This document shows positions 2,951 to 24,183 of a DNA stretch of 24,183 nucleotides, one piece after another. Origin of the DNA: Mycoplasmatota bacterium (GTDB taxonomy: Bacteria > Bacillota_I > Bacilli_A > RF39 > UBA660); contig JAAZHK010000063.1 in NCBI GenBank assembly GCA_012510745.1, positions 1-24,183 on the forward strand, read 5' to 3'. Numbering within the stretch: the first letter of the stretch is position 1; each line of letters opens with the position of its first letter. The position numbers and the translations under genes are program-made. The notes below the pieces were generated by a model. It searched no databases and was not told the origin of the DNA. It saw only the letters and a list, made by a program, of their open reading frames with translations.

Positions 2951-2978
2951 AAAAAAATAAACACATTGTGTTTATTTT
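2951..2978 (-). terminator. Intrinsic terminator after ssdC/ydcC
   Basis: Stem AAAATAAACAC(2954-2964)/GTGTTTATTTT(2968-2978) followed by a T-run. Contains the stop at 2972-2974. Confidence 0.75.
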
Positions 2979-8357: not shown

Positions 8358-8376
8358 AAATACTCCTTATTTTATT

Positions 8377-8385
8377 ATTATATCA
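8377..8385 (-). promoter_or_regulatory. Extended -10 element (TGATATAAT) upstream of dxs
   Basis: TGnTATAAT 19 nt upstream of the ATG; RBS AAGGAG follows. Confidence 0.5.
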
Positions 8386-8405
8386 CTACTAATAATATAA
8401 TTAAA

Positions 8406-8435
8406 TCAAAAAATGAAAGATTAACTTTCATTTTA
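8406..8435 (-). terminator. Intrinsic terminator after the hybrid kinase-like gene
   Basis: Stem AAAATGAAAG(8410-8419)/CTTTCATTTT(8425-8434), 5-nt loop, T-run. Overlaps the stop at 8433-8435. Confidence 0.75.
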
Positions 8436-10241
8436 ATTTTCTTTCAAATACGTAATAATGTTTTCTATATCTTTCTTTTTTATTGGTTTTTTAATAACAT
8501 CATAAATACCAATTTCTTTATATTTTTTCTTAATATTAACGTCATCACTATCTGTTGTAATTATAACGGGAATATCATAACCTTCGGTTTTTAATTTATT
8601 AAATACTTGTAATCCGTTTAATTTAGGCATCTCATAATCAATAATTATTAAGTTAAACTTTTCACCATTTCTGACTTTTCTTAAACATTGTTCACCCATT
8701 ATTACTGTGTCAATAAAAATATTTTGATTTTTAAACATTTTTTTAATTCTTTCTAAATTGTTTAAATCTTCATCCACTAATAATATTTTAGGTATAGTTA
8801 AGTCTTTAATATACTCAGCCATTTGGTCATTCTTGGTGTCTTCTTCAGGGATATGTTGATCAATAGTTATAGTTATTTTAGTACCTCTATTTAATTTGCT
8901 ATTAATATTAAACGTACCACCAATTAAATTTATTATTTTGTTAACACTATTTAAATTAAGATTTCTAGATATATAATCATTATCTTCTCTTTTACTAAAA
9001 ATATTATTAATAATTTTTTGGTCAATTCCTATGCCTGAATCTTCTAAAGTTATAATTAAACGACATATTTCATATTTAATTACACTACTAACTCTTAATT
9101 CAATAAATCCTTTTTTAGTATATTTAATTGAATTTTCTATAATAGTAGTTAAAATTTGTTTAATTTTAATAGAATCTCCAAATAAATACTCTGGAATATT
9201 ATTTTCTACCGACACTCTAAAATCAATACTTTCTTTGATTTTATTTTTAGCTGCTAAAGTTGTCTCTTTTATAAGATTCTTTACATTATATTTATTATCA
9301 ATTTTTTCTATTTTTATTATATCTTCTTCACTAATATTTAAGGTTTGATTTATCATTTTATTAGATCCATCTACTATAGATTGTAATTTATGTAAATTTG
9401 ATTTTATAACATCAACATCATTGCTAGCAAGTGTTTCAGTAATATTAGATTTCATTAAAATTATTCTTTTTTTCATTTCTTGAGTTATATTAAAAATAAA
9501 GTTGGATTTATCTGTATTTAATTGTTCTGCTTTATCTTTTGAAAGCTTTATTTCTTCAACTAATTTTAAATCCGGATTTTCAATGGTAAAGTACATTAAC
9601 AATACTGCGAAAGAAAAAGGGAGTGAATTTAATAATATTCCTGGATTAATTTGCCTTAAAAACAAAGCTAATCCTGAAATAATAATGAATATAAATAATG
9701 GTAAATATTTTATAAATCTCTTTTTATTCGTTCTAAATATTAAAGCAATAAACCAAGAAAAAAAGTACATTCCATATATTATTACAATAAAATCAGTTGC
9801 AGGCCCATAAGAATAAGAATAAACACCATCATTAAACTGATCAATTCTTAAAGTAATAATTTTAAATAAACATACTGCTATAAAAATTATAAATATAATA
9901 AACAATATTTTCATTTTTTTTGAATTAAATTTTTTTATAATCTTTTCTTTTTCACTAAAAGCAATTTTAAAAATATACACAGTAAAAACTGTTACCCAAT
10001 TAAAAATTGTTATTAAAAATAGTCTGTTTAAAAACATATTATACAATGAATATGAATCAACTTTCAATAAAACATTAACACACAAATGAAGTTCTATAAA
10101 CATATTAACAAGAGCTAAGATTAATAATACATTATATATATTTGTTTCGAAATTTTTAGTTTTTTTCTTTAAGAAATAAAGGATAGATATTATAATAGTA
10201 TAAATAAAACTGCAACCTATTGCTGACATACCTATTAACAT
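8433..10241 (-). CDS. 7TM hybrid sensor histidine-kinase-like protein with C-terminal receiver domain (kinase core degenerate)
   Basis: About 7 hydrophobic segments in the first ~220 aa. DHp-like KSNFIFNITQEMKKR (no His). HATPase remnants ENSIKYT and LEDSGIGI. REC domain LLVDED, IIIDYEMPKLNG, VIKKP. RBS GGAGGT. Confidence 0.88.
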   Translation of the reverse strand: MLIGMSAIGCSFIYTIIISILYFLKKKTKNFETNIYNVLLILALVNMFIELHLCVNVLLKVDSYSLYNMFLNRLFLITIFNWVTVFTVYIFKIAFSEKEKIIKKFNSKKMKILFIIFIIFIAVCLFKIITLRIDQFNDGVYSYSYGPATDFIVIIYGMYFFSWFIALIFRTNKKRFIKYLPLFIFIIISGLALFLRQINPGILLNSLPFSFAVLLMYFTIENPDLKLVEEIKLSKDKAEQLNTDKSNFIFNITQEMKKRIILMKSNITETLASNDVDVIKSNLHKLQSIVDGSNKMINQTLNISEEDIIKIEKIDNKYNVKNLIKETTLAAKNKIKESIDFRVSVENNIPEYLFGDSIKIKQILTTIIENSIKYTKKGFIELRVSSVIKYEICRLIITLEDSGIGIDQKIINNIFSKREDNDYISRNLNLNSVNKIINLIGGTFNINSKLNRGTKITITIDQHIPEEDTKNDQMAEYIKDLTIPKILLVDEDLNNLERIKKMFKNQNIFIDTVIMGEQCLRKVRNGEKFNLIIIDYEMPKLNGLQVFNKLKTEGYDIPVIITTDSDDVNIKKKYKEIGIYDVIKKPIKKKDIENIITYLKEN

Positions 10242-10278
10242 TAATTATTTACCTCCATTCAATTATTGCTTTATATAA

Positions 10279-10287
10279 ATTATATCA
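10279..10287 (-). promoter_or_regulatory. Extended -10 element (TGATATAAT) upstream of the kinase-like gene
   Basis: TGnTATAAT in the intergenic region, downstream of the preceding terminator. Confidence 0.5.
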
Positions 10288-10342
10288 TGTAAGTTTTAAT
10301 ATTCCATAGTTTTTTTATTTTTAACAATTTAATTCTTTTGTT

Positions 10343-10365
10343 AAAAAACGAGAATTACTCGTTTA
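10343..10365 (-). terminator. Intrinsic terminator after the adenylate-forming enzyme gene
   Basis: AAACGAG(10346-10352)/CTCGTTT(10358-10364), 5-nt loop, T-run. Overlaps the stop at 10363-10365. Confidence 0.75.
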
Positions 10366-12282
10366 TTTTTTTACAAATATTTTTTGCGGTTTCGGTGGAA
10401 TTGTTTTTTTTATATCATTTAAATCGTTAATTACTTGATATAAAGGTTCAGCGTTTTCTGGAAATGCTACTTTCATAATATTTCCTTCATCATTTATAGT
10501 ATAATAAGTAGTTCTTTCATCACGCAATGTGATAATTTCTCTTTTATCAGTTGATAAACTACGAGCAAAATGAGTTCTAAAAATTAGCCCCTCAGGAACA
10601 AATTTATCTTCTATTCCATAAGATTCATAAATATGTTTTATAATATTAGCAGGATTCACTTCTGGAGCTACAACTAAGTTTACTACTGGTGTTCCAGATT
10701 CATTGTCGTTATTATGAGGAATTAATAAAGCTTCTGCTTCTATTATACCAGGTATATTTAATAATTTATCTCTCATGTCAAATAAAAATGCACCTTTATT
10801 TAAATCTATCGAATCAACCTTCCCATCAGTAAAAGTAATACCCGGAGTATATCTTTTGTTATCTTGAGTTGGTACAACAAAATCATGAACTCTACCATTT
10901 ATTGAATATATTGGATGTCCATTATATTCTCCAGTAATCGTAGCAATATCATTATTGGTTCCCCAAATATTTCCGTCTTCATCTGTATAATTAAAAAAGT
11001 CTTCCGTCGCTTTTTTATTATGTAAATATTCTTTCATTTGCCAACCACACCTAGCATATAAGATTCCTCTTTCTCCAATTTTGCTTTCTTTCCATGTGGA
11101 AGGGTTTAATATCATTGCTTTAGCACCGGGGATTAATATACCTGTTTCATTACTTCTGTTTTCAACTCCATAAGTAGTCATTATAGCTGAGCCAAATTCT
11201 GTACTACCTCCACCTATAACTATTGGTTCTGATCCTGCCCATTTAAGCCTTTCATTAACTAATTTAGTTGGACCTAAGGGTGTTGGTTCACCTCCACAAC
11301 TAGGTTTCAGTTTATTTAAATCTCCTTTTTTTAACGGAGAATGAGCCACTGCAACATAAAGTCCAAAAGGAGATATTACATCGCTTATTTCATCTTCAAT
11401 AAGAGCCTTTGTGATTTGAGCCGGCTCAAATGCTCCAGGATTGTAAATAATATTAGCCCCAGATGCTCTACGAAGTAACAATCCATAATATTGGCTAGTT
11501 ATGTGTGATATAGGAATAAGTAATAATGACTTGTCTCCTTCATTAACACTAAAATCTGGAAATGTCTCTTTTTCATGAGCTTTCAATAACTCAATTATAG
11601 ATTTATGAGAATGAACAGCACAATTTGGAACTCCAGTGGTTGTTCCGCCTGTATTAGAATATGTTGCGCTATAATCTAAAAGATTTAATTTTTGTTTTTC
11701 TGTTGGTAATACAATTTTGTTTTCAGTTGCTCTTTTTAATTCACCGGGATACACAATTTCAATATTTTTAGGTAATTCTAAGAAATTAATCATTTCTTTA
11801 AAATTAAATTGTTTATTATAAATTGCCTCTTTTTCTTCAGTTCTATAATCGCCTGCAGAAGTAAATATAATTCGTTTTACAATATTTTTTCCATTATTAT
11901 TTCCTAAATCTTTTAAAGCTTTTTTCATATTAGGTGTAATATATTCAACACTTAATATAATTGTTTCTGATCCTTTTTCTGTAGTGTGTTTTTTTACATC
12001 GCTATTAAAAAAGGATAAACTTACTGTACTAACTATTGCACCAAGCTCAAGTAATGCCATATAAATAAATTCATATTCTGGAGCATTTAAATTGCATATA
12101 GTAACTGGTTTTTCACATCCATAAAAAAATCCTAGTGATATAAAATATCTTTTATATTGTTCTATTTTCTCCCAATATTCTTTGCGTGTAATTTTATTTC
12201 CGTCAAATTCTATTGAAATACCTTCTCTGTTTCTTTCTTTTTCTCTTTTTTTAATATAATCTACTACTGACTTATAATTCAC
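10363..12282 (-). CDS. Class I adenylate-forming (ANL/AMP-binding) enzyme, acyl-CoA synthetase-like, divergent
   Basis: GTG start, RBS GGGGGA. P-loop-like YSNTGGTTTGVPNCAVHSH, LIPISHI, CGGEP, GGSTE, ND(I), NGRVHD, and DKR corresponding to the A10 Lys. Substrate cannot be determined. Confidence 0.85.
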   Translation of the reverse strand: MNYKSVVDYIKKREKERNREGISIEFDGNKITRKEYWEKIEQYKRYFISLGFFYGCEKPVTICNLNAPEYEFIYMALLELGAIVSTVSLSFFNSDVKKHTTEKGSETIILSVEYITPNMKKALKDLGNNNGKNIVKRIIFTSAGDYRTEEKEAIYNKQFNFKEMINFLELPKNIEIVYPGELKRATENKIVLPTEKQKLNLLDYSATYSNTGGTTTGVPNCAVHSHKSIIELLKAHEKETFPDFSVNEGDKSLLLIPISHITSQYYGLLLRRASGANIIYNPGAFEPAQITKALIEDEISDVISPFGLYVAVAHSPLKKGDLNKLKPSCGGEPTPLGPTKLVNERLKWAGSEPIVIGGGSTEFGSAIMTTYGVENRSNETGILIPGAKAMILNPSTWKESKIGERGILYARCGWQMKEYLHNKKATEDFFNYTDEDGNIWGTNNDIATITGEYNGHPIYSINGRVHDFVVPTQDNKRYTPGITFTDGKVDSIDLNKGAFLFDMRDKLLNIPGIIEAEALLIPHNNDNESGTPVVNLVVAPEVNPANIIKHIYESYGIEDKFVPEGLIFRTHFARSLSTDKREIITLRDERTTYYTINDEGNIMKVAFPENAEPLYQVINDLNDIKKTIPPKPQKIFVKK

Positions 12283-12321
12283 TTTTATTCCCCCATATAT
12301 TTATAAAATAAATTATTTCAT

Positions 12322-12350
12322 ATTATATCAAAATAATTTACTTTTTGCAA
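12322..12350 (-). promoter_or_regulatory. SigA-type promoter TTGCAA-N17-TATAAT with extended -10 TG
   Basis: -35 TTGCAA at 12350-12345, 17-nt spacer ending in TGA, -10 TATAAT at 12327-12322. Confidence 0.7.
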
Positions 12351-12438
12351 ATTTATATTAATATTTTGTTAGTTAAATAGAAAAATGCAAATTACTATTT
12401 ATTAAATTATGGTTATTATGCTTAGCTACATCATAGTT

Positions 12439-12843
12439 TTAATAGCGATCTTTACCCCACCATTTATGGAACGTTTCTTTTAATTTAATCGTTTTAAATG
12501 AATCTAAATCAACTAATATTTCTAGTTCTTTATTTTTTTCAGCTAACTGGAGAAAGAATTCACTGCAAGCTCCACAAGGGGTCATTAAACGCCCATCACG
12601 GTAAAGACAAACTAATTTCGTTACCTCGTTTTCGCCATTAGTCAACATATTCATAATAGCATTTCTTTCAGCACAAGTACCTAATGAACATCTAGTATCG
12701 ACATTAACACCAGTAAAGATATTTCCTTTACTAGTCATTAAAGCACATGAGATGCCACCGGCTGTTATAAATGGACTGTATTCATTATATTTTTGAATAG
12801 ATTTAGCTTTTTTATATAATCTTTTAAAATCAGATTTAGACAT
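12439..12843 (-). CDS. cdd: Cytidine deaminase (tetrameric, Cys3-Zn type)
   Basis: CAERNAI and PCGAC zinc motifs. The start overlaps the gpmI stop by 8 nt. Confidence 0.88.
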   Translation of the reverse strand: MSKSDFKRLYKKAKSIQKYNEYSPFITAGGISCALMTSKGNIFTGVNVDTRCSLGTCAERNAIMNMLTNGENEVTKLVCLYRDGRLMTPCGACSEFFLQLAEKNKELEILVDLDSFKTIKLKETFHKWWGKDRY

Positions 12844-14350
12844 GAGTTTCTCCTTTCAATAATGACGTCCCTGTCATTTCTTTAGGAATTTTAATATTCA
12901 TAATATCTAAAATGGTAGGAGCAATATCAACAAGACTTCCATTATTTAATTGATATTCTTTATTGACAATAATAAAGGGTACTTTATTATTAGTATGAGT
13001 TTTGTCGGGCATATTATCATCGCTTATCATATGTTCACAATTACCATGATCTGATGTAATTATCCAAATATATTTATCTAGATCTATATTTTTTAAAATT
13101 TTTCCAATACACTGATCAATAGATTCTACTCCTTTAATAGCTGCCTCTAATATTCCTGTGTGACCCAAGGCATCTCCGTTAGGATAATTGGCAACAATCA
13201 AATCATAATTAGATTTAGTACTTTCTATAATAGCGTCTGTAATTGATGCTGATCTCATAGCTGGACTTTCATCATAAGTAAATACGTTTTCACGCTCAAA
13301 GATTAAACGATCCTCTAATGGAAATGGCTTTTTAGTACAACCGCTAAAAAAATAAGTTACATGTGGTTGTTTTTCAGATTCACTTATTCGTATTTGTCTC
13401 TTATTTAATTGGCTTAAATAATCTCCTAAAGTGTTATTTAGATAAGGTTCTGAAAAAGCTACGGTAATATTGTTGTTTTTATCATATTCAGTCATAGTAA
13501 TGAAAGTTAAAGGGGTTAAAAATCTTTTTCTTGGAAAAAAATTAAAATTAGAATTACTAATACTGCTTAAAAATTGTAGCATACGATCAGATCGATAATT
13601 AAAGAAAATAATGCTATCATTTGCTTGTATTGGAACTTTTTTAATAACAGTTGGTAAAATAAATTCATCAGTTATATTGTTTTTATAAGATGTTTCTATT
13701 ACTTCATAAATATTATTAGCTAAAGGACCCTCTCCATCAACAATAGCGTTATAAGCCTTTTGAGTTAAATCATAATTACTATCTCTATTCATCAGATAAT
13801 ATCTTCCTCCTACAGTAATAATCTCCCCAATACCTATTTGTTTTATTTTATCTTCAAGTATCTTTAAATATTTTTTAGCAACCTTAGGTTCTGTATCTCT
13901 TCCATCTAATAAAGCATGAATATAAACTTGTTTAAAATTTTGCATATAACAAAAATCGAGCAAAGCTAATAAATGATCAAGATGAGAATGAATTCCTCCA
14001 TCAGAGACTAAACCAATAAGATGAATATTAGTATTATTTTCTTTGCAATTATTAATAGCTTTTAAAAAGGCTTTGTTTTGATAAAAAGTTTCTTCTAATA
14101 TGCTTTTATTAATTCTAATTAAATCCTGTTCAATAAGGCGACCTGACCCTATAGACATATGACCAACTTCACTATTACCAACTTGATTTTTTGGTAAACC
14201 AACTGCTAAACCACTGGCTTCTAATAAAGAATTAGGAAAATTACTCATTATATAGTCAATATTAGGAGTATGTGCTTGTTTAAAAGCATTTCCTTTTTTT
14301 TGAGAGCTAATACCAACTCCATCTAAAACAGTTAATATAACTTTTTTCAT
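12836..14350 (-). CDS. gpmI: 2,3-bisphosphoglycerate-independent phosphoglycerate mutase
   Basis: VLDG, phosphoserine motif GNSEVGH, DGGIHSH, LDGRD, GRYY, EKQPHVTYFF, NGDALGHTG, SDHGN, HT. Metal ligands are present. RBS AGGAGG. Confidence 0.96.
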   Translation of the reverse strand: MKKVILTVLDGVGISSQKKGNAFKQAHTPNIDYIMSNFPNSLLEASGLAVGLPKNQVGNSEVGHMSIGSGRLIEQDLIRINKSILEETFYQNKAFLKAINNCKENNTNIHLIGLVSDGGIHSHLDHLLALLDFCYMQNFKQVYIHALLDGRDTEPKVAKKYLKILEDKIKQIGIGEIITVGGRYYLMNRDSNYDLTQKAYNAIVDGEGPLANNIYEVIETSYKNNITDEFILPTVIKKVPIQANDSIIFFNYRSDRMLQFLSSISNSNFNFFPRKRFLTPLTFITMTEYDKNNNITVAFSEPYLNNTLGDYLSQLNKRQIRISESEKQPHVTYFFSGCTKKPFPLEDRLIFERENVFTYDESPAMRSASITDAIIESTKSNYDLIVANYPNGDALGHTGILEAAIKGVESIDQCIGKILKNIDLDKYIWIITSDHGNCEHMISDDNMPDKTHTNNKVPFIIVNKEYQLNNGSLVDIAPTILDIMNIKIPKEMTGTSLLKGETHV

Positions 14351-14358
14351 ATATCCTC

Positions 14359-15627
14359 CTATAAAACATCTCTTAAACAGAAAATAGCATAAACTGGTAT
14401 ATATTTAACCTCTTTTTTAAAACTAAAATTATTCTCTGTAATACGAAACGCTTCCTTTAAATCGAATTTATTCATTAACAAAGTTAAAGCTTTAGCTTTA
14501 GTTAAATTAGGGTTTACAATTTCAATAGGAATAACTTTACCTTGTCTAGAGTTGATAATAAAATTTACCATAGCTTTTCCTTCGGATTGATAATAATATA
14601 AATTATAACCTAAAGAATTTAAAGTATTAGCAACTGCTGTTTCATATAAAATGTTCTTCATATTATTATTCATAAATAATTTATTTTGAGTTAAATGCAT
14701 TTTAGTATATAAAAGACCTGTGTCGGGTAAAAATAATTTGAAACTATCATTGTCTTTTTCTTTATTTAAGGGAATAACAATATTACTTATTTTATAGGAA
14801 CGATATATTAAATTGTTATTACATAAAAAATCAATACTATTTTCATAATCACTGGCTCTACTTCCTGTTTTCATAACGTTATATTGAAATTTAGGATTAT
14901 TTTTTTGTAATTGAGAGGCAATAGCGTCTATAATATCAACTGATCTAGTAATATCAATTAAATTTTTATTTAAAACAGTATCACTTTTCATAATGTTAAT
15001 AATTTTTTGATGAACACTTCTTACTTTATTTAAATCTTTAGTTTTTAAGTAACATTCAATAGCTTCTGGCATACTTCCAGTTATTAAGTATTCTTCAAAA
15101 TATTCTAATGCTAATGAATGAAAAGGCATAGAATTTCCTGTTTTAAAGGAATCTTTAATAAATAATATTAATTGCTCCTTGTTTTGAGCTTTTAGATATT
15201 CTTCGAAATCCATACTATACATTGTTTTAATTTGAATCTCTTCACCTTTAAGACTTTCTATCATCTCTTTTATATTAGTAATTAAAATAACGTGATATTT
15301 ACTTCCATTAAAACCTTTTAAGCTTTTAAAAAGTTTTTTATTATTAAAATTATCAAAAATAATTAAACTATCGTTTTCAAAAATAGTTTCACCTGTTAAA
15401 CTAGATAATTTATTAACCATTTTTTCAAGTACTGTTTCTTTACTTAAAATGTTTGTTAATTCCGAATTTATATTAGTATCAAAATAAATAATATTTTTAT
15501 ATTCTTTATTACCAAAATTTAATACTGAATAAGTTTTACCTATTTGTCTTGGACCATATATTAATAAAGGTTTTTTATTAATATCCCTTTTCCACTTAAG
15601 TAATTCTTTTGTTATCTTTCGTTCCAT
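14359..15627 (-). CDS. AAA_14 / DUF4143 family ATPase-like protein (Walker B and C-terminal nuclease-like motif degenerate)
   Basis: MERKI..LLKWK...KPLLIYGPRQIGKT (Walker A), MYSMDFEEYL, YLITGSMPEAI, KLFLPDTGLL, IPIE. Overall layout matches the family. Confidence 0.85.
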   Translation of the reverse strand: MERKITKELLKWKRDINKKPLLIYGPRQIGKTYSVLNFGNKEYKNIIYFDTNINSELTNILSKETVLEKMVNKLSSLTGETIFENDSLIIFDNFNNKKLFKSLKGFNGSKYHVILITNIKEMIESLKGEEIQIKTMYSMDFEEYLKAQNKEQLILFIKDSFKTGNSMPFHSLALEYFEEYLITGSMPEAIECYLKTKDLNKVRSVHQKIINIMKSDTVLNKNLIDITRSVDIIDAIASQLQKNNPKFQYNVMKTGSRASDYENSIDFLCNNNLIYRSYKISNIVIPLNKEKDNDSFKLFLPDTGLLYTKMHLTQNKLFMNNNMKNILYETAVANTLNSLGYNLYYYQSEGKAMVNFIINSRQGKVIPIEIVNPNLTKAKALTLLMNKFDLKEAFRITENNFSFKKEVKYIPVYAIFCLRDVL

Positions 15628-15672
15628 AAATCGCCTTCTCCTTACAGATTATTTGTTTTTTAACTTAATACA

Positions 15673-15701
15673 AGTATATATTATTGTAAAATCTTTGTCA
15701 A
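15673..15701 (-). promoter_or_regulatory. Near-consensus SigA promoter TTGACA-N17-TATACT
   Basis: -35 at 15701-15696, -10 at 15678-15673, exact 17-nt spacer. Would drive ATPase-like gene, gpmI and cdd. Confidence 0.8.
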
Positions 15702-15709
15702 TTTATTTC

Positions 15710-15737
15710 AAAAAAAAAGACCTATACTTCTGGTCTA
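15710..15737 (-). terminator. Intrinsic terminator after spo0A
   Basis: AGACC(15718-15722)/GGTCT(15732-15736), 9-nt loop, long T-run on the minus strand. Overlaps the TAG stop. Confidence 0.7.
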
Positions 15738-16508
15738 CCTTGAGCCTACTTTATGGAAATCTAATCTTAACTTATCTGCTACTGTAACAATAAATTCTGA
15801 ATTAGTAGGTTTTGCTTTATCAATATCAACACTATGTCCAAAGATTTCTTCCATAAGATCCCAACTACCTCTATTCCAACTTATTTCAATAGCGTGTCTA
15901 ATTGCTCTTTCGACTCTTGAAACAGTTGTTTCAAATTTAGAAGCAATATCAGGATATAACTCTTTAGTAATACCACCTATAACTTCTGGTTTTTCATATA
16001 TAATTGAGATGCCTTCTCTTATATATTGATATCCTTTAATATGGGAGGGAATACCCAATTCATGTAACACTTTAGTAATAGAGATTTGTAAATTATTATG
16101 ATAAATATCAATAGTTTTATTTCCATTCGAGGTATTAGTTACACATTCAGTTATCCTTCTTTCTAAATCAGACAACTCAAATGGTTTTAAAATAAAATAA
16201 TTAATCCCGAATTCAGAAACTTTTCTAATCATATCTTGAGCGTTATATGACGTTAAAACAATAATTTTAGCATCTATTCCTCTTTGATTTATTTCCTCTA
16301 ATACTGCTATGCCGTCTTTTTTAGGCATTATTAAGTCTAGCAAGATAACATCATAATCATTCTTTTTTTCTTCTATTAATTTTAGTCCTTCATCACCGTC
16401 ATAAGCTGTATATGTTACTTCAATGTTTGCGTGATCTTCGAAATACTCCTTTATCATTTTTACTAATTCGATATTGTCATCGATCATTAAAATTTTTGTT
16501 TTTTTCAT
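15735..16508 (-). CDS. spo0A: Sporulation master regulator Spo0A
   Basis: Start placed at ATG 16508 (RBS AAGGAG). Receiver IDDN, LLDLIMP, LT, LKPF. Spo0A C-terminal domain [50 protein letters not shown]. Confidence 0.97.
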
Positions 16509-16598
16509 GGTTCTCCTTTCTCTTGTACTTCCCACGCTATTTTATTATATAGTAATAGAATTTTAATTAAAAGAGCAAAAAAACACTACTTTTGTCTA

Positions 16599-16628
16599 AT
16601 TATGTATAATATTATCTTTTTTTGTCAA
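16599..16628 (-). promoter_or_regulatory. Candidate SigA promoter of spo0A: TTGACA-N18-CATAAT
   Basis: -35 at 16628-16623, -10 at 16604-16599. A second TATAAT at 16549-16544 lacks a -35. Confidence 0.5.
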
Positions 16629-16652
16629 AAAAAGATATTTTTCATATCTTTT
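16627..16652 (-). terminator. Intrinsic terminator after tpiA
   Basis: AAAAGATAT(16630-16638)/ATATCTTTT(16644-16652), 5-nt loop, T-run. The TGA stop lies within the hairpin. Confidence 0.6.
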
Positions 16653-17358
16653 CAATCATATTTATCATTTTGTTGGCATCTAGACTAGCTGCACCAATTA
16701 AAAAACCATCTAAATTATTTACCTTTAATAACTTGTTAATATTATTAATATCTACACTACCACCATATAATACTCGTATGTTAACATCATACTTTTTTAA
16801 TATATAATTTTTTATAAAAGAAATCGTTTCTAATAATTCTTCATTTGTAGGAATTATATCAGTTCCTATTGACCAAATAGGTTCATAGGCTATAACAATG
16901 TTATTAAGATCCTCGTAACCAATTCCCATTAAAGCTTTGTCTATTTGTTTCGGTAAAATAGTTATTAATTTATTTAATGCTTTTTGTTCTCTGGACTCTC
17001 CTATACAAAGAATTATTTTTATCCCTGCATTTAGGGCACTTTTTATTTTTTTATTAATTAGAATATCATCTTCATTAAATTGAAAACGCCGATTATAATG
17101 ACCTATTATAACATAATTAATATTTAATGATTTTGCTTGAAAAGGAGTTACTTCGCCAGTTAAATTTTCTCCTGAAACATTTAAATTTTGGATACCGACT
17201 TTGAACCCTTTGCCTAGAAAATATGGTATATAAATACTTGTGGGACAAATAATTAATTCTACTTTATCAGAATTATATTTTTTAATTATCTCTAGATAAT
17301 TTTTAATATCATTAGCTAATAAATTATTTTTGTGATTACCTACTATCATTATTTTCAT
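16642..17358 (-). CDS. tpiA: Triosephosphate isomerase, divergent active-site motifs
   Basis: GNHK, TGEV, IIGH..RR, LCIGE, AYEPIWSIGT, LYGGSV, FLIGAASL. Catalytic Lys, His and Glu are present. Confidence 0.93.
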   Translation of the reverse strand: MKIMIVGNHKNNLLANDIKNYLEIIKKYNSDKVELIICPTSIYIPYFLGKGFKVGIQNLNVSGENLTGEVTPFQAKSLNINYVIIGHYNRRFQFNEDDILINKKIKSALNAGIKIILCIGESREQKALNKLITILPKQIDKALMGIGYEDLNNIVIAYEPIWSIGTDIIPTNEELLETISFIKNYILKKYDVNIRVLYGGSVDINNINKLLKVNNLDGFLIGAASLDANKMINMIEKI

Positions 17359-17362
17359 ATAA

Positions 17363-18586
17363 CTACCTTCTTATCGTTTCTATAATTTTTGATAAAAAAC
17401 CAAATCTTCCTTTTTTATTTCTAATAGCATGGCGATATACTCTTAATGCATTTGTTGCATAAGTTTTTGAACTATTTTCTTCAGCTGTAATTCTTGCTTG
17501 ATTTTTTAATTTATCATTTTTATTATCTTGATTATAATAAACGTCTTTAATAATCTTTTCACATTCTTTAGGGTCATTAAATAAGTACCCGTTTAAACCA
17601 TTAATAACTACTTTATTAAAGGCATCATCATTAATACATATTGGAATCTTTTCTGCTGCCATAGCTTCAATAACTGTTAATCCTTGAGTTTCGCTTGTTG
17701 ATGGAGTGATAAAAGCATCAGCTAAATGATAATATAAAGGGACTTCTTCCCAAGGGACAAAACCAGTAAATATAGTTTGTTTTTCTATTCCTATTTTTTT
17801 AGCATGTTTTATAAACTTTTCTTTATCAGGACCGTCTCCTACTATTAGTAATTTAATGTTTTTTATATCTTTATAAACATCTTTAATAATATTTAATAAA
17901 TAAATAACATTTTTTTCCTCAGCTAATCTTCCAACAAAAATTAAAACAAAATTTTGATCACTTAGATTATACTCTGTTTTTATCTTTTTTAATTTACTAA
18001 AATTAATGTTTTCTTTATAAAATCTCTCTACTTCAATACCTGTTGGTACGATATGAACGTTACGATTTACTTGATATTTTTCTTTAAATAAATCATAAGT
18101 CTTTTTAGTTGGAACAATTAATTCTGTTGCTGTTTTATCACAATAAAATAAAGTTAGATATTCTACTATTTTGCGACTTGAATGATTAAAGTAACCTCGA
18201 GTAACATAGTGAACATAATCTTCATACATTGTATGATAAGTGTGTACAAGTGGAATATTAAATTGTTTAGCAACGATTCTTGCAAAAGTTCCTACTCCAA
18301 ATTCAGTATGTGAATGAATAACATCTAATCGCCATTTTTTAATCGTTTTTAATAATCTTATCGGATATACTTTTGTTAAACGATATCCATATATCCAAGT
18401 TTTAATACCTGGAATTCTAATTACTTTATTATTTTCTTCAAAACAATATTTATGATTATCATCATTAGAAGTAACTAAAAAAACCTGATGTCCCTCTTTT
18501 TCTAAAGCTTTCTTTAACATAGAAACGCTTGTAGAAACACCGTTTATATAAGGTGGGTATGTATCTGTAAATAAACCTATACGCAT
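17363..18586 (-). CDS. GT4 glycosyltransferase, monoglycosyldiacylglycerol synthase-like
   Basis: Start placed at ATG 18586 (RBS AAGGAG). MRIGLFTDTYPP..NGVSTS, IHSHTEFGVG, HTYHTMYEDY, FVGRLAEEKN, SETQGLTVIEAMA. Confidence 0.88.
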   Translation of the reverse strand: MRIGLFTDTYPPYINGVSTSVSMLKKALEKEGHQVFLVTSNDDNHKYCFEENNKVIRIPGIKTWIYGYRLTKVYPIRLLKTIKKWRLDVIHSHTEFGVGTFARIVAKQFNIPLVHTYHTMYEDYVHYVTRGYFNHSSRKIVEYLTLFYCDKTATELIVPTKKTYDLFKEKYQVNRNVHIVPTGIEVERFYKENINFSKLKKIKTEYNLSDQNFVLIFVGRLAEEKNVIYLLNIIKDVYKDIKNIKLLIVGDGPDKEKFIKHAKKIGIEKQTIFTGFVPWEEVPLYYHLADAFITPSTSETQGLTVIEAMAAEKIPICINDDAFNKVVINGLNGYLFNDPKECEKIIKDVYYNQDNKNDKLKNQARITAEENSSKTYATNALRVYRHAIRNKKGRFGFLSKIIETIRR

Positions 18587-18599
18587 ATTCTTCTCCTTA

Positions 18600-19787
18600 T
18601 TAACTTTCAATCTTTTCAATTATTTCAATTCCTGGTAGTTTTTTTCCTTCAAGATATTCTAATGTGGCTCCTCCACCGGTACAAGCATGAGTAACTTTAT
18701 CTTTATAATCAAATTTATTAGCTGCAGCTACAATATCGCCTCCACCTAATACAACATGAGCATTAATATTAGCTATAACTTCTAATATCTTCTTAGTTCC
18801 TATTTCATATTTAGAAAATTCATACACTCCTAGAGGCCCGTTCCAAAAAACACTTTTAGCTGTATTTAATATTTGTTTAAATTGTTCTATAGTATTAGGA
18901 CCTATATCCATTCCCATTTCTTTAGGATCTATATTTTCAATACTTACAATACGATTAATTGTCGTGTTACTAAATTCTACTGTTACATTTAAATCAATAG
19001 GTAAAACTATTTTATCATTATATTCCTTTATTAATCTTTTAACATATGGAAGACTTTCTTTGTCTAATAATGAAGTTCCTATTTCATAACCTTTTGCTTT
19101 TAGAAAAGTATATGACATACCACCACCAATTAATATTAAATCAGCTTTTGGCAATAATTTATCAATAATTCCTATTTTATCTTTAATTTTTGCACCACCC
19201 AAAATAATAATAAAAGGTCTTTCAGGATTAGCAAAGTAAGACAGTGCTTTTAATTCTTTCTCTATTAAAAATCCGATTCCATTAGGTAACAAAGAGGGAA
19301 CTCCATAAGTTGATGCATGTGCTCGATGAATAGACCCAAAAGCATCGTTTATATAAATATCAGCAAGATTTGCCCAGTATTTAGATAATTCTAAATCATT
19401 TTTACTTTCTGCTTCATTATTTAAATCTTCAAATCTAGTATTTTCCATTAAAATAATTTCACCATTTTTCATTTTTTTAATAGCAGTTTCTAGTTTTAAA
19501 CCTCTTGTTTGAGGAATAAACAAAACTTTCTGATCTAATTTTTCACTAAGTTTAATACTAATTGATAATAAAGAATTATCTTGTTTATCACCTTCTTCTT
19601 TTATTCTACCTAGATGAGACATTAAAATTACTTTAGCTTGACGATCAATAGCATATCTAATAGTTTTTAAACTAGCGTCAATCCGTGTTTCATCTATTAT
19701 TTCACCATTAATAATAGGAACATTAAAATCACATCTTATTAAAACCTTTTTCCCTGTTAAATCATAATCTTTAATTGTTTTATTCAT
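18600..19787 (-). CDS. pgk: Phosphoglycerate kinase
   Basis: RCDFNVP, SHLGR, ENTRF, NDAFG..HRAHAS, GGAKI.DK, DIGP, FWNGP.GV.E, GGGD, TGGGATLEYLEGK. Confidence 0.97.
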   Translation of the reverse strand: MNKTIKDYDLTGKKVLIRCDFNVPIINGEIIDETRIDASLKTIRYAIDRQAKVILMSHLGRIKEEGDKQDNSLLSISIKLSEKLDQKVLFIPQTRGLKLETAIKKMKNGEIILMENTRFEDLNNEAESKNDLELSKYWANLADIYINDAFGSIHRAHASTYGVPSLLPNGIGFLIEKELKALSYFANPERPFIIILGGAKIKDKIGIIDKLLPKADLILIGGGMSYTFLKAKGYEIGTSLLDKESLPYVKRLIKEYNDKIVLPIDLNVTVEFSNTTINRIVSIENIDPKEMGMDIGPNTIEQFKQILNTAKSVFWNGPLGVYEFSKYEIGTKKILEVIANINAHVVLGGGDIVAAANKFDYKDKVTHACTGGGATLEYLEGKKLPGIEIIEKIES

Positions 19788-20760
19788 TTTTATTTTCCTT
19801 TCTTAAATATTGTTTAACACTTTCTTTTATAGCTTTTTTAGCATCTTCGGCTTTATATCTAAGCTTATCCATACTTATTTCTTTTTCTATATAAGTATAT
19901 CTAGATTGAAAATCAATATATTTAATTGGATTTAAAACTGATTCTAAACCATGATTTTTATGGTTTTTTAACTTCTTTTTCATACCAACTTTAGCCAATT
20001 TAGTTGGGATAGTGTAAATTTGTTGTTCTTGGATAGCCGTTTTACTAATTATATCAATTAGCTCTTCCCAAGTTATATTAGTTCCTGCTAAAGGATAACT
20101 ACAGCCGTTTTCTCCATATTTAAAAGCACCATAAATAGCTTTATTTAGTTGATTAGGGGTAATAAAGGTCGAACCTCCTTTGGGTAAAAAAATAGCTTGT
20201 GATAATAATGTTTCTTCAATTATATAACTATTAGTCTTTTCCATTACAGGACCTTTACCAAATAAATGTGGTATTTCTAAATTAACAATCTCTATTTCAT
20301 TTTTATATTTTAATATAAGATTTAATTGTTCATTTCTAACTTTAATTAAAGGGTGATGTTTACTTAATTTTAATTTAGGCAGAGTTTTATCAAAATAAGT
20401 ATAAAAACTACCTAGGAAAACAATTTTTTTTATACCTGCTCGTTTTGCTATTTCAATAAATCTCCTTGTTTGTTCAACAATCTCAATTCGAAGACTATTA
20501 ATAACTGGTTTTTTTAAAGTTTTATTATAATCAATGCTGTCTCCATATAATAAATAATCATAATCTTTAAAAAGCGAAATTAGCTTACCATCATTAGCAT
20601 TTTTAAAATCAACTGTTTCTATTTCAATATTGGAAAAATCTTTATATAAATTTCTATTTATTGTGTTAGTTAATATTTTAACTTTCCATTTTTTATTGAT
20701 TAAAAACTTAGTTATATGATATGTTATAAAATTATTTTCATCGATTATTACTACCCTCAT
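19780..20760 (-). CDS. NAD-dependent epimerase/dehydratase (extended SDR)-like protein with degenerate motifs
   Basis: Start placed at ATG 20760 (RBS AGGAG). Family-like segments AKRAGIKKIVFLGSFY, LEIPHLFG, PKGGSTF, YPLAGTNITW. The stop overlaps the pgk start by 8 nt. Confidence 0.78.
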   Translation of the reverse strand: MRVVIIDENNFITYHITKFLINKKWKVKILTNTINRNLYKDFSNIEIETVDFKNANDGKLISLFKDYDYLLYGDSIDYNKTLKKPVINSLRIEIVEQTRRFIEIAKRAGIKKIVFLGSFYTYFDKTLPKLKLSKHHPLIKVRNEQLNLILKYKNEIEIVNLEIPHLFGKGPVMEKTNSYIIEETLLSQAIFLPKGGSTFITPNQLNKAIYGAFKYGENGCSYPLAGTNITWEELIDIISKTAIQEQQIYTIPTKLAKVGMKKKLKNHKNHGLESVLNPIKYIDFQSRYTYIEKEISMDKLRYKAEDAKKAIKESVKQYLRKENKNE

Positions 20761-20792
20761 GTTTCTCCTCTTCTCCATATATCCTTTAACTA

Positions 20793-20801
20793 ATTATAGC
20801 A
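20793..20801 (-). promoter_or_regulatory. Extended -10 element (TGCTATAAT) upstream of the SDR-like gene, pgk, GT4 gene and tpiA
   Basis: TGnTATAAT in the 65-nt gap. Confidence 0.55.
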
Positions 20802-20825
20802 TTTTTTATAAATAAAAACACCTAA

Positions 20826-21554
20826 TCATAGGTTGTTTTCTGTTAAATTATTATAATAATCTTTTATTATTTTAGGATGGAGCGTAATTATATACATATC
20901 ATCAATAATATTTGCTGTGTATATTTTAAAATATTCTGTCAATTCATCTTTATTTTGAATAAGGTTTGTCATTACTTCTTTTTTATTTAATAATCTATCT
21001 TTAATAAAATCTACTGGTACGGTATTAGTATCAATTACATAAAAATCATAATCTTCGCTCCATTCTTCTACATTATTATTTGTCATCTTCAAACCTATTT
21101 TAGCATTTATAGAATCTTTTTTAAGTAAATCAAGCATTTTTTTATTTGAACTTAAAACATATATATTATCTGTTGGATGATTATTTATTATTTGTTTTAA
21201 AACCTCTATATATCGTTCTTTATTTTTTGATTCATCTATTAAATTTAATATTATTATTTGTTTATTATCTTGATACACTTCTAAAACTTGATTTAATGTA
21301 TTAATATAATGGCTTTTTACTTTGGTACCTATATTATACTTTTTTAATAACTCATAACTACAATTAGAGATTGGTCCAAAACTGGAAGGTAATTTTACAT
21401 CTGATTTAACTATTACTAAATTATTATCAGTTGTTAAATAAGTATCTAATTTGATACCTGCTAAATATAAACATTTTGCTGATAATTCAATTGAATCCAT
21501 AGTACTAGCAGGTACATTTCTAGTGGATAAACCATCTTCAGCAATATATTTCAT
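20826..21554 (-). CDS. Glycerophosphodiester phosphodiesterase (GDPD)-like protein lacking catalytic residues
   Basis: Spacing pattern IA..G...P.ST..S...GI.LD..LT.D..LV....I..L..L..G...I.TL.QVLE follows the GDPD N-terminus. RBS GAGGTG. Confidence 0.75.
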   Translation of the reverse strand: MKYIAEDGLSTRNVPASTMDSIELSAKCLYLAGIKLDTYLTTDNNLVIVKSDVKLPSSFGPISNCSYELLKKYNIGTKVKSHYINTLNQVLEVYQDNKQIIILNLIDESKNKERYIEVLKQIINNHPTDNIYVLSSNKKMLDLLKKDSINAKIGLKMTNNNVEEWSEDYDFYVIDTNTVPVDFIKDRLLNKKEVMTNLIQNKDELTEYFKIYTANIIDDMYIITLHPKIIKDYYNNLTENNL

Positions 21555-21600
21555 GTATACACCTCTTTTAATTATATGTTTCTATATAATTAAAATTATT

Positions 21601-21629
21601 AAAATAAACATCTTGAAGATGTTTATTTT
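21601..21629 (-). terminator. Intrinsic terminator after gap
   Basis: 14-bp perfect inverted repeat AAAATAAACATCTT-G-AAGATGTTTATTTT containing the stop at 21623-21625. Confidence 0.75.
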
Positions 21630-22627
21630 TTCATTAAATATTTTGCGGTTCTAACCATTTGATGGCTATAGCCCATTTCGTTATCATACCATGCGACTAT
21701 TTTTACTAACTGTTTATTATCAACTTCTAAAACTTCTGTTAATAATCCATCTACTAAAGCTCCACAGCTTGATCCTATAATATCGCTAGATACTATTGGG
21801 TCTGTAGTAAATGTAAGGGTATCATTACTTTTATTTATAAATAGATTATTTATTATTTCTTTAGTAGTCTTTTGATTTAATTCAAGAACTAAATCTATAA
21901 CTGAACCAGTTGATACAGGTACTCTCATTGCTGTACCTGTCAATTTCCCGGATAAACTAGGTATAACTAATCCTATTGCGCTTGCAGCTCCAGTTGATGT
22001 TGGTATAATATTTTCAGCTGCTGCTCGTCCTCTACGAGAGTCAATACCTTTTTTATGTGGAATATCTAAGGTTACTTGATCGTTAGTATAAGCGTGAATG
22101 GTTGTCATAAAACCTTTTTCTATTTTAAAAGAATCATTTATTACTTTTAAAACTGGTGCTAAACAATTAGTAGTACAGCTAGCAGCTGAAATTATCTCTT
22201 CTTCTCCTGTTAATATTTCTTCATTAACATTATAAACGATTGTTTTTAAATCGCCTTTAGCAGGGGCTGATATAATTACCTTTTTAGCTCCAGCTTTAAT
22301 ATGAGCAGAAGCTTTTTCCTTATCTGTAAAAACTCCTGTACATTCAAAAACAATATCAATATCCAAATCTTTCCAAGGTAGCAGATTAGGATCTTTTTCA
22401 CTATAAATCTTAATTTTTTTATTGTCAATAATTATATAATTATCTTCAAAAGAAATACTATCAACTTTGTAATTACGATAATTTGTGTCATACTTTAACA
22501 AATACGCTAATTGTTCAGCATCTGTTAAATCATTTATTGCAACTATTTCAAAATCTTGATCACTATCCATAATTCTGAACACAAGTCTCCCAATTCTTCC
22601 AAATCCATTAATGGCTACTTTTATCAT
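21623..22627 (-). CDS. gap: Type I glyceraldehyde-3-phosphate dehydrogenase
   Basis: INGFGRIGR, INDL, ECTG, catalytic ASCTTNCLAP, HAYTNDQ, IIPTSTGAA, WYDNE. RBS AAGGAGG. Confidence 0.97.
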   Translation of the reverse strand: MIKVAINGFGRIGRLVFRIMDSDQDFEIVAINDLTDAEQLAYLLKYDTNYRNYKVDSISFEDNYIIIDNKKIKIYSEKDPNLLPWKDLDIDIVFECTGVFTDKEKASAHIKAGAKKVIISAPAKGDLKTIVYNVNEEILTGEEEIISAASCTTNCLAPVLKVINDSFKIEKGFMTTIHAYTNDQVTLDIPHKKGIDSRRGRAAAENIIPTSTGAASAIGLVIPSLSGKLTGTAMRVPVSTGSVIDLVLELNQKTTKEIINNLFINKSNDTLTFTTDPIVSSDIIGSSCGALVDGLLTEVLEVDNKQLVKIVAWYDNEMGYSHQMVRTAKYLMKK

Positions 22628-22643: not shown

Positions 22644-22672
22644 ATTGTAACAATTTATTTTATTTAAAACAA
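22644..22672 (-). promoter_or_regulatory. Candidate gap promoter TTGTTT-N17-TACAAT with extended -10 TG
   Basis: -10 TACAAT at 22649-22644 preceded by TGT; -35 TTGTTT at 22672-22667 inside the udk 3' end. Confidence 0.4.
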
Positions 22673-24183
22673 CTCCCACCAATAAACTCTCTTAAAATAG
22701 AATCATCTGGTATAGATTCTGATGGAATGGTTAAAAATAATTGTAAAAATTTTAATAATCTTACTACATCATTATAATGCGGTGAATCCGATTTTACAGA
22801 ATATAATAAAGGTTCCGCATATGTTCTTAATACACCTAGTTCATATATTAAAGCCGAATTAATAGTAGCATCAGCCTCATCTTGGTATGGAAAAACAAAC
22901 TGTTCTTCTCCTATTCTTACTTCTTGCCATTGCTCTAATGTCTGTTCTATACTCGTACCTCTAGTTTTATTATCTCTTACTATTCTTCTAAGTAATCTAT
23001 TATCAGTAGTAGAAATACGATTGTGTTTATCAATCTTTAATTCTGTTAAGGCTGAAATATATATTTTATATTTTTTACTTTGATCTATATTATTTAATAT
23101 ATCATTATTTAAACCATGTATACCTTCAATAATTAAAAAATCATTTTCTTGTAGTTTTAAAGCTTTTTTAAAAGATTTTTCCCCTGTTACAAAATTAAAA
23201 ATTGGGGCGATGACTTCTTCTCCATCTAATAATCTTTTAATTTGTTCATCAAATAATTTTAAATCTAATGCATAAATACTTTCAAAATCTAATTCGCCTT
23301 TTTCATTTCTTGGTTTATCTTTATGATCTAAGAAAAAATCATCCATAGATAACATAACTGGATTTAAACCAAAACTTCTAAGATACATGCTCAATTTATT
23401 ACATGTTGTTGTTTTTCCTGAAGAAGAAGGTCCAGCAACTAAAATAATTTTAACTTTATTCTTTCTACTGAAAATATCTCTTGCGATTTCTAACAAACGC
23501 ATACTTTGTAAAGTCTCATCTATCCTAATTAAATCTTCTATGTTACCTTTAGATACTATTTCATTTAATTGGGTAACATTTTCAATATTCATAATTTTAG
23601 CCCATGTATAATATTCTCTAAATATTTCAAATATTTGTGGATGATGTTGATATTTTTTGATTTTACCACCACTATATTTAGTTGGAAAAGTTAAAATTAA
23701 ACCGTTAGAATTTAAATAAGTTAAATTAAAATGACCTAAACACTCAGTATTAATAGGCATCAATGAATAAAAATAATTATATAAATATCCCAAACGATAT
23801 AAATTAATATTAGAACTGCTATTGTATTTCATAATGCCTTTTTTTGCATCATCATCCATTCTTTTAAAATAATCAATAGCGTCTAATCTATTAATAGTTA
23901 CTTTAGTAATATCCATGCGACTATTTATAACTTCTTGCATTTTTTCTTTTAATAAAGTAACACTATTTTCATCTATTTCAATATTTGTTTCAATATAAAG
24001 ACCTTTATCAATAGCATGTTCTACTTTAATATCAGCTTTTTCGCCAAATAATTCCTTAAAAGAATAAATTGTTAAATATATTAATCCGCTTACATAAACT
24101 TTATTAGTATAACTATCTAACAAATCAAAAAAATCTATATTACAAGGTTTAGTAATAACCTCATTTAATTCTTGATAAATACC
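22660..24183 (-). CDS. udk: Uridine/nucleoside kinase with N-terminal ThrRS-like domain (5' end outside the window)
   Basis: The frame stays open from 24123 to 24183 (GIYQELNEVITKPCNIDFFDL), so the track's TTG start is internal. P-loop AGPSSSGKTT, SMDDFF, IIEGIHGLN, RLLRRIVRD, VFPYQDEAD, LREFIGGS. Confidence 0.9.
   Translation of the reverse strand, partial: GIYQELNEVITKPCNIDFFDLLDSYTNKVYVSGLIYLTIYSFKELFGEKADIKVEHAIDKGLYIETNIEIDENSVTLLKEKMQEVINSRMDITKVTINRLDAIDYFKRMDDDAKKGIMKYNSSSNINLYRLGYLYNYFYSLMPINTECLGHFNLTYLNSNGLILTFPTKYSGGKIKKYQHHPQIFEIFREYYTWAKIMNIENVTQLNEIVSKGNIEDLIRIDETLQSMRLLEIARDIFSRKNKVKIILVAGPSSSGKTTTCNKLSMYLRSFGLNPVMLSMDDFFLDHKDKPRNEKGELDFESIYALDLKLFDEQIKRLLDGEEVIAPIFNFVTGEKSFKKALKLQENDFLIIEGIHGLNNDILNNIDQSKKYKIYISALTELKIDKHNRISTTDNRLLRRIVRDNKTRGTSIEQTLEQWQEVRIGEEQFVFPYQDEADATINSALIYELGVLRTYAEPLLYSVKSDSPHYNDVVRLLKFLQLFLTIPSESIPDDSILREFIGGSCFK

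Follow-up and report, generated by a model that had tools for sequence, protein, structure and literature searches.

Three putative modules of different ages around the glycolytic genes and spo0A of an uncultured member of the Bacilli with a small genome

The stretch of DNA analysed here (24-kb, 24,183 nt; hereafter the window) is contig JAAZHK010000063.1 of the Mycoplasmatota bacterium assembly GCA_012510745.1. It carries a glycolytic gene run in which spo0A and the genes of four pseudoenzymes are interleaved. All called genes lie on the minus strand, to which all window coordinates given below refer, and the G + C content is about 25%. Of the 108 contigs of a 724-kb metagenome-assembled genome (MAG; estimated completeness 92%), the window is the longest. 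The genome of the organism is about 0.75 Mb in size, with a range of approximately 0.75–1.3 Mb for the lineages compared. The genus comprises three species: the window species, the sister species G001 and a third species represented by Logan contig L202. Gene distribution was surveyed in one genome per genus from 60 genera of an uncultured family of Bacilli. Selection was judged from omega (dN/dS) against 348 reciprocal best pairs with G001, which have a median identity of 73%, a median omega of 0.148 and a 95th percentile of 0.40.

Based on Pfam and NCBIfam, the genes follow each other in the order gap, GDPD-like gene, SDR-like gene, pgk, GT4 glycosyltransferase gene, tpiA, spo0A, AAA_14/DUF4143 gene, gpmI, cdd, ANL gene and histidine kinase gene, as proposed in an earlier note on this DNA. 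The note had also described four proteins of different folds that lack catalytic residues and have open reading frames, a description confirmed by alignments and fold matches. In the orthologues of all four, the same residues were found to be lost.

The run from gap to tpiA starts with gap at positions 21623–22627. Its product matches Pfam Gp_dh_N/C, contains the catalytic SCTTNC and is 84% identical to that of the sister species (omega 0.06). The intact pgk (18600–19787; Pfam PGK, 463 bits) precedes the GT4 gene (17363–18619), which has Mgs, alpha-monoglucosyl-diacylglycerol synthase, as its best NCBIfam match (NF049988, 280 bits, cut-off of 400 not reached). It is followed by tpiA (16642–17358; Pfam TIM, 204 bits), the only TIM match of the genome. 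Further downstream, gpmI (12836–14350; Pfam) codes for the cofactor-independent phosphoglycerate mutase and overlaps at its end with cdd (12439–12843; Pfam/NCBIfam), coding for a cytidine deaminase with intact zinc motifs. The motifs of Gap, Pgk, GpmI, Cdd and Spo0A are intact in the translations, in keeping with the statement of the note that the flanking Gap, Pgk and GpmI keep their catalytic residues. TpiA had been called atypical, and is so: it features GHYNRR where relatives have GHSERR. In the alignment, the near-invariant Ser96 and Glu97 are replaced by Tyr and Asn in this genus only, and the catalytic residues Lys, His and Glu are still present (NHK, GH, YEP).

In most genera the usual order is PRK/udk-like gene, gap, pgk, LPG_synthase_TM, Mgs-type GT4 and tpiA. 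The flippase-like LPG_synthase_TM gene is found between pgk and the GT4 gene elsewhere at, for example, L016:12834-13844, L015:13419-14468, L018:7761-8828 and L020:2685-3716. It is absent from the genus of the window, in which pgk overlaps the GT4 gene. The gene order from the PRK/udk-like gene to cdd is identical in L202 and, across two contigs, also in G001. The G001 assembly contains 100-N scaffold gaps inside genes (positions 2132-2231, 6728-6827 and 10373-10472 of L013, which is G001:C24, and 1345-1444 of L091), giving false fusions or truncations of the udk-like gene, of SDR-pgk and of the AAA_14 gene. What looked like a fusion of the SDR-like gene with pgk in this sister species was rejected as an artefact of such a gap. 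Compared to the cggR-gapA-pgk-tpiA-pgm-eno operon of Bacillus subtilis, the window keeps the gap-pgk-tpiA-gpmI order, but lacks cggR and eno in this block, has a PRK/udk-like gene in front of gap and interleaves glycolipid genes, spo0A and the AAA_14 gene. The PRK/udk-like gene (22660–24123; Pfam/NCBIfam; 487 aa, N-terminal half without assignment) lies directly upstream of gap, at the place of cggR in Bacillus, and this arrangement is common to many related genomes.

Gene spo0A (15735–16535) yielded Pfam matches to Response_reg (1.9e-24) and Spo0A_C (9.6e-40). Both the receiver and the DNA-binding domain are intact, with 89–90% identity within the genus and an omega of 0.06–0.07. The gene is flanked on both sides by gaps of about 106 nt. 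Genes tpiA and spo0A were both found in 52 genera; in 46 of these, spo0A is located on the same strand no more than about 1.5 kb downstream of tpiA. In Bacillus, spo0A adjoins spoIVB; a literature search found no publication on spo0A adjoining tpiA or gpmI. Tandem spo0A paralogues after tpiA were observed in at least two genera (L020:5696-6478 and 6560-7363 of G002; G054:C32:7093-7866 and 7963-8715), with about 50–61% and 70–72% identity to Spo0A of the window. Three genomes had only short or divergent Spo0A_C open reading frames of 129–220 aa (G062:C9:25822-26112, G049:C18:19277-19483 and G074:C23:11105-11425), of which that of G062 still adjoins tpiA; these may represent sporulation loss in progress.

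The genome encodes SigA and the sporulation sigma factors SigE, SigF, SigG, SigH and SigK (the latter partial, at a contig end). Four receiver domains were detected, together with a single canonical orphan membrane histidine kinase, whose H, N, G1 and G2 boxes are intact and which could serve Spo0A. In this assembly (G000; 724 kb, 92% complete), Spo0A, the sigma factors and the orphan kinase are located on contigs C7, C54, C55, C82, C96 and C60. Reduced orders of Bacilli that partly keep sporulation genes have already been described (PMC10868615).

The gene after spo0A (14359–15627) codes for a protein with AAA_14 (3.2e-11) and DUF4143 (4.8e-22) matches in Pfam and ends 8 nt before gpmI. Its Walker A motif (GPRQIGKT) is kept, whereas Walker B reads IIFDNF instead of hhhhDE (Glu to Asn) and the nuclease motif reads MVNF...EIV instead of EVDF...EVK, the residues of PD-(D/E)xK nucleases. 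Every member of the clade to which it belongs, here termed the DN clade, features GxxxxGK[TS], hhhhDN, ITS in place of AGS, and E[VI][NS]F...E[IL]x. In contrast, all 21 distant homologues (31–36% identity; from Clostridia, Bacteroidota and Spirochaetes) have DE, AGS and EVDF...EVK; the motif split is complete. An AlphaFold2 (AF2) model of the window protein has a pLDDT of 90.7, with a fold resembling ORC/Cdc6, STAND and archaeal ATPases; the profile of its orthologues gave no sequence match in the PDB.

When delimited by profile matches of at least 360 bits, the DN clade occurs in 14 of the 60 genera and lies beside spo0A in 11 of the 13 genera other than that of the window. A scan of species genomes yielded about 58 carrier species. 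Among 52 loci with enough flanking sequence, 31 have spo0A immediately upstream, and further loci have it 0.5–4 kb upstream; gpmI is immediately downstream in 28 of 54 loci. None of the 21 distant homologues adjoins either gene. Identities in the clade are 44–53% across the approximately 58 species, which equals gpmI and is above tpiA. Within the genus they are 73–86%, with an omega of 0.08–0.20.

The architecture is that of PDC-S01 in PADLOC (AAA_14 plus DUF4143, COG1373), a very common ATPase fused to a PD-(D/E)XK domain that lacks experimental validation (PMC12988326); DUF4143 has been placed in the PD-(D/E)XK superfamily (PMC3424549). The window protein scores 351 bits against the PDC-S01 model (PDLC04786), the distant homologues 568 bits. 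Members of the DN clade differ from canonical PDC-S01 in the loss of the Walker B Glu and of the nuclease Asp and Lys, in the position of most loci beside spo0A or gpmI rather than in variable regions and in being under ordinary purifying selection. The DN protein would bind nucleotide without hydrolysing it and probably be co-translated with GpmI.

Between gap and pgk, two genes are present that were found at this site in the window species, G001 and L202 only. The first (20826–21554, 242 aa) has no Pfam match and was assigned by alignment and fold to the glycerophosphodiester phosphodiesterases (GDPDs). A word-indexed search with the protein returned only itself; homology was established with an E-value of 2.6e-14 to a protein of genome G010, which itself matches Pfam GDPD (PF03009) at 1.8e-24. 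The AF2 model has a pLDDT of 89, and the top 25 PDB matches in Foldseek are all GDPDs, with a TM-score of about 0.75. The protein shares the TIM-barrel fold with characterised structures (2pz0, 3qvq and B. subtilis GlpQ, 5t91; TM 0.70–0.77), but not their catalytic His and Arg or their metal-binding acidic residues. In an alignment with GDPDs of sister genera, the motifs HRG, ENT, E[LF]D, HD and E[LI]K read EDG, AST, KLD, SD and LNL; the two catalytic His residues are replaced, as are the Arg and the acidic (Glu) residues that bind the metal, with the same losses in all three species. Other genera encode intact GDPDs elsewhere in their genomes. The gene is 45–48% identical within the genus (omega 0.32–0.54; 0.44 against G001; z 2.9–4.3 below 1) and is among the fastest 5% of the 348 pairs. 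It is relaxed, but still under selection. A second dead GDPD-like paralogue lies beside tyrS (G000:C22:2365-3072; L012:1300-2007) and is better conserved than the window copy, with 64% identity to its G001 orthologue and an omega of 0.15. Pfam detects no GDPD in the genome, which has these two dead copies.

The second gene (19780–20778, 332 aa) has a sub-threshold match to Epimerase and belongs to a family of short-chain dehydrogenases/reductases (SDRs) characterised by the motif HPYIRSR. Its last 8 nt overlap the beginning of pgk. A word-indexed protein search found only three SDR-like proteins, and an exhaustive profile search was needed to show that the family has at least 171 clusters (E < 1e-30, alignments of about 320 residues). 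Almost all of approximately 115 full-length representatives have GGTG[FL][LI]G, [FY]AAGxD and HPYI[RK][SA]R, where the window protein has DENNFIT, GDSID and HPLIKVR; the Rossmann glycine motif is gone and the catalytic Tyr is replaced by Leu. The lost Rossmann motif is common to the three species, in which the Tyr position is occupied by Leu, Phe or Tyr. Omega is 0.08–0.24, with an ordinary value of 0.18 against G001. Atypical SDRs of the NmrA type likewise have the SDR fold without the catalytic Tyr and are under selection, and the L202 orthologue weakly matches NmrA. NmrA keeps the dinucleotide-binding glycine motif. The window protein, in contrast, lacks that motif too, and its parent family, HPYIRSR, is a different one.

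The last two genes of the series are an AMP-binding (ANL) gene (10363–12282; Pfam AMP-binding) and a hybrid histidine pseudokinase gene with seven predicted transmembrane helices (7TM; 8433–10241; Pfam HATPase_c and Response_reg). The ANL protein is atypical, as had been noted: its P-loop (A3) reads TTTGVPNC with Asn in the place of Lys, NND is found at A7 and A8 is followed by about 25 inserted residues. The A5 TE, the A8 GR and the Lys near A10 are kept, and all of these features are shared with the orthologue in G063 (70% identity), which likewise precedes a 7TM hybrid kinase gene. In the window kinase, the H-box reads NITQEMKK where members of the sister clade have SMSHEIRTP (His to Gln); the N-box Asn and G1 (DSGIG) are kept, G2 has changed from GTGLGL to RNLNLN, a replacement seen in every His-less member, and the receiver motifs are intact (DED, IIIDYEMP, ITT, KKP).

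Hybrid kinases of this type (about 600 residues, membrane helices counted by eye from the sequence) were found in 47 of the 61 genomes, many of which have more than one copy. They form two groups, a canonical one (SMSHEIRTPLNAIVGF) and a His-less one with Q, E or K at the His position (at least 11 genera), separated in a quick tree by a single branch with 100% SH-aLRT support. The His-less members have lost G2, and about half of them also the receiver Asp. An ANL gene directly precedes the kinase gene in at least 12 genera, for canonical and His-less forms alike. The other His-less kinase of the genus (contig C6, G001 and L202; omega 0.15–0.26) follows a PlsC-type acyltransferase. The membrane part of the window kinase is 64% identical to the G063 kinase, in which the His is kept, and 27% to the C6 paralogue, whereas its DHp and CA domains are 20–29% identical to the former and 42–62% to the latter. 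This mosaic suggests recombination between paralogues. The sensor part travels with the ANL gene (window 8433-10241 compared to G063:C60). In G001, gpmI, cdd and dxs are contiguous, without the cassette at this site, and no ANL gene was found in the approximately 70% of that genome that was searched.

DivL of Caulobacter is a histidine pseudokinase. The closest published analogue of the window kinase is PsmA of Streptomyces venezuelae, a pseudokinase that works without a phosphorelay (PMC12963549). Common to all three is a conserved hybrid kinase-like protein without the phospho-accepting His. The window kinase differs from PsmA and DivL in its 7TM input, the lost G2 and the constant partner gene for an acyl-type enzyme, and is related to them at the superfamily level only. 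A similar gene neighbourhood is known from Xanthomonas, where RpfB, a fatty-acyl-CoA ligase, and RpfC, a membrane hybrid sensor kinase, act in diffusible signal factor (DSF) signalling. As in the window, the gene of an ANL-type acyl enzyme lies beside that of a multi-pass membrane hybrid kinase; however, RpfC is active and has an HPt domain, while the core of the window kinase is dead.

Taken together, we consider the stretch to be a composite of three independent modules of different ages, with a probability of about 0.7. Gene anatomy, phyletic ranges, residue losses and purifying selection are the observations on which this reading draws, while every biochemical role of the parts is one that we infer. 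The first module would be old and consist of the gap-pgk-tpiA run with a glycolipid pair (LPG_synthase_TM and Mgs-type GT4) and spo0A directly after tpiA. In one subclade, an AAA_14/DUF4143 gene would have become fixed between spo0A and gpmI; its product, which retains the P-loop but neither the Walker B Glu nor the Asp and Lys of the nuclease, may act as a non-catalytic switch or scaffold. The second module would be young and restricted to the genus: a GDPD and an SDR of the HPYIRSR family were presumably placed between gap and pgk, subsequently lost catalysis and may have been kept as ligand-binding or structural proteins. The third would be a recurrent cassette of a fatty-acyl-type enzyme (ANL here, a PlsC-type acyltransferase elsewhere) followed by a 7TM hybrid pseudokinase, probably inserted between cdd and dxs in the window species.

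Several points weigh against this composite. The conserved adjacency of spo0A, the DN gene and gpmI could reflect a functional tie. Each genus was sampled by a single genome, and the MAGs are 71–98% complete. All omega values are pairwise, with dS of about 0.7–1.6, which is close to saturation. The comparison of motif decay covered the SDR and ANL superfamilies rather than the whole genome. Constraint on the window kinase and the ANL protein rests on seven single-nucleotide polymorphisms (SNPs), as neither has an orthologue in the approximately 70% of the sister genome searched.

Overlapping with the composite reading is the view that the DN protein works together with Spo0A or GpmI, for instance by sensing the ATP state and acting on entry into sporulation or on the spore store of 3-phosphoglycerate, and that the other pseudoenzymes are unrelated to it. 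In Bacillus spores, 3-phosphoglycerate storage is controlled by regulation of the cofactor-independent phosphoglycerate mutase. The frequent position of the gene by spo0A and before gpmI, with gaps of 8–16 nt or overlaps, argues for such a partnership, as do the kept P-loop with the hydrolysis residue lost in every member and a fold of switch-type ATPases. However, the case for a partner is one of adjacency, the gene lies away from both spo0A and gpmI in about a quarter of the loci and most spo0A-bearing genera lack it. A complex prediction for Spo0A and the AAA_14 protein from 37-row alignments scored 0.00, which is not evidence either way. Four of five genomes with an absent or degenerate Spo0A lack the DN gene, an uninformative result, since most genera lack it anyway. 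We regard a dedicated partnership as unlikely. An extended version appears more doubtful still: a PDC-S01 member would have been domesticated in tiny-genome Bacilli as a nucleotide-state switch on GpmI or sporulation entry, and the cassettes of acyl enzyme and dead 7TM kinase would form an unrecognised lipid-sensing family free of phosphotransfer.

In contrast to the composite, the four genes could be decaying relics whose frames stay open by chance or for translational coupling downstream, the alternative that the earlier note had offered. The fast GDPD-like gene fits this view, with an omega of 0.44 above the 95th percentile and an identity well under the median. So do the variable Tyr position of the SDR-like protein, the long branches of the His-less kinases and the generally fast evolution of reduced lineages of Bacilli of this kind (PMC10868615). 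Nevertheless, omega is significantly below 1 throughout for the SDR-like, AAA_14 and GDPD-like genes (z 2.9–7), and on this ground drift is rejected, even though selection on the GDPD-like gene is relaxed. Values at or below the genome median were obtained for the SDR-like and AAA_14 genes, and the DN clade is as conserved as gpmI over its species range. Based on base composition, a random frame of 242 codons would be open with a probability of about 2e-10 at approximately 26% G + C; the four open frames are therefore not due to chance.

Within-species variation was taken from contigs of four runs, a fragmentary sample of strains that are about 99.5% identical, in which 23 coding SNPs were classifiable. 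Those listed are mostly synonymous, including two of two in the kinase gene and four of five in the ANL gene; many other differences in the run contigs stem from related organisms in conserved parts. In the two superfamilies checked, motif decay is gene-specific. The glycine motif is kept in all four other SDR-superfamily proteins with a readable N-terminus. Three of them also have YxxxK, the fourth ending at a contig border. In the second ANL protein of the genome, A5 (YGxTE) and A7 (TGD) are kept. Decay by drift is very improbable.

The central proposal of the earlier note was a single lineage-specific system made up of all twelve genes: its pseudoenzymes would act as sensors or scaffolds that inform Spo0A of the carbon, lipid and nucleotide status, or else be structural proteins of the spore. 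Although the single strand, the short gaps between all genes, the sporulation sigma factors in the genome, the lipid-related ancestry of three inserts (GDPD, Mgs-type GT4 and acyl-type ANL) and the occurrence of the DN gene never without spo0A, which it usually adjoins, speak for it, this proposal is the least probable of all, given three phyletic ranges with the ANL-kinase pair missing from the site in the sister species, Spo0A without the DN protein in about 40 sampled genera, gaps of 106–156 nt that separate spo0A, AAA_14-gpmI-cdd, ANL and kinase, and a canonical orphan kinase available for Spo0A. The pseudoenzymes themselves are real and selected. A single system is unsupported because its parts differ in range (spo0A family-wide, DN gene in 14 of 60 genera, GDPD/SDR pair genus-only, cassette at other sites in other genomes) and because only adjacency links the pseudoenzymes to Spo0A. 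A dN/dS well below 1 was found for three of the genes and only moderately so for the GDPD-like gene; synteny is conserved within the modules, which have three different ranges. Co-occurrence with spo0A and the sporulation sigma factors holds trivially, as nearly the whole family has spo0A, and most genera with spo0A lack the DN gene.

Downstream of the kinase gene lie dxs, cdaA and ybbR. Two genes downstream of ybbR, for a GerS-like germination lipoprotein (2972-3961; weak NCBIfam match) and a CtpB-like S41 protease (1114-2331), are further sporulation-related genes of the window. Near-identical DNA was detected in bioreactor/digester, pig-gut, manure and wastewater metagenomes (11 studies), with no RNA data set listed among the sequencing runs, and related records originate from human, rabbit, ruminant and mouse gut. 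A scan found 141 promoter-like sites (122 expected) and 4 terminator-like sites (3.2 expected); given the base composition, these counts carry no information.

Many pseudoenzymes have been described from eukaryotes, but few from bacteria. The present four, each with a different fold, lend themselves to dating and to comparison with intact sister genes, and they occur in genomes as small as about 0.75–1.3 Mb, from which useless genes should vanish quickly. The locus is also a warning that a neat gene series may be a mosaic of unrelated insertions. If the organism really sporulates, its genome would be among the smallest to do so. The DN clade provides a clean example of how an ATPase-nuclease from a defence-candidate family can become, at a housekeeping locus, a conserved gene without catalytic residues. 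It also offers a way to approach the function of AAA_14/DUF4143, an uncharacterised family.

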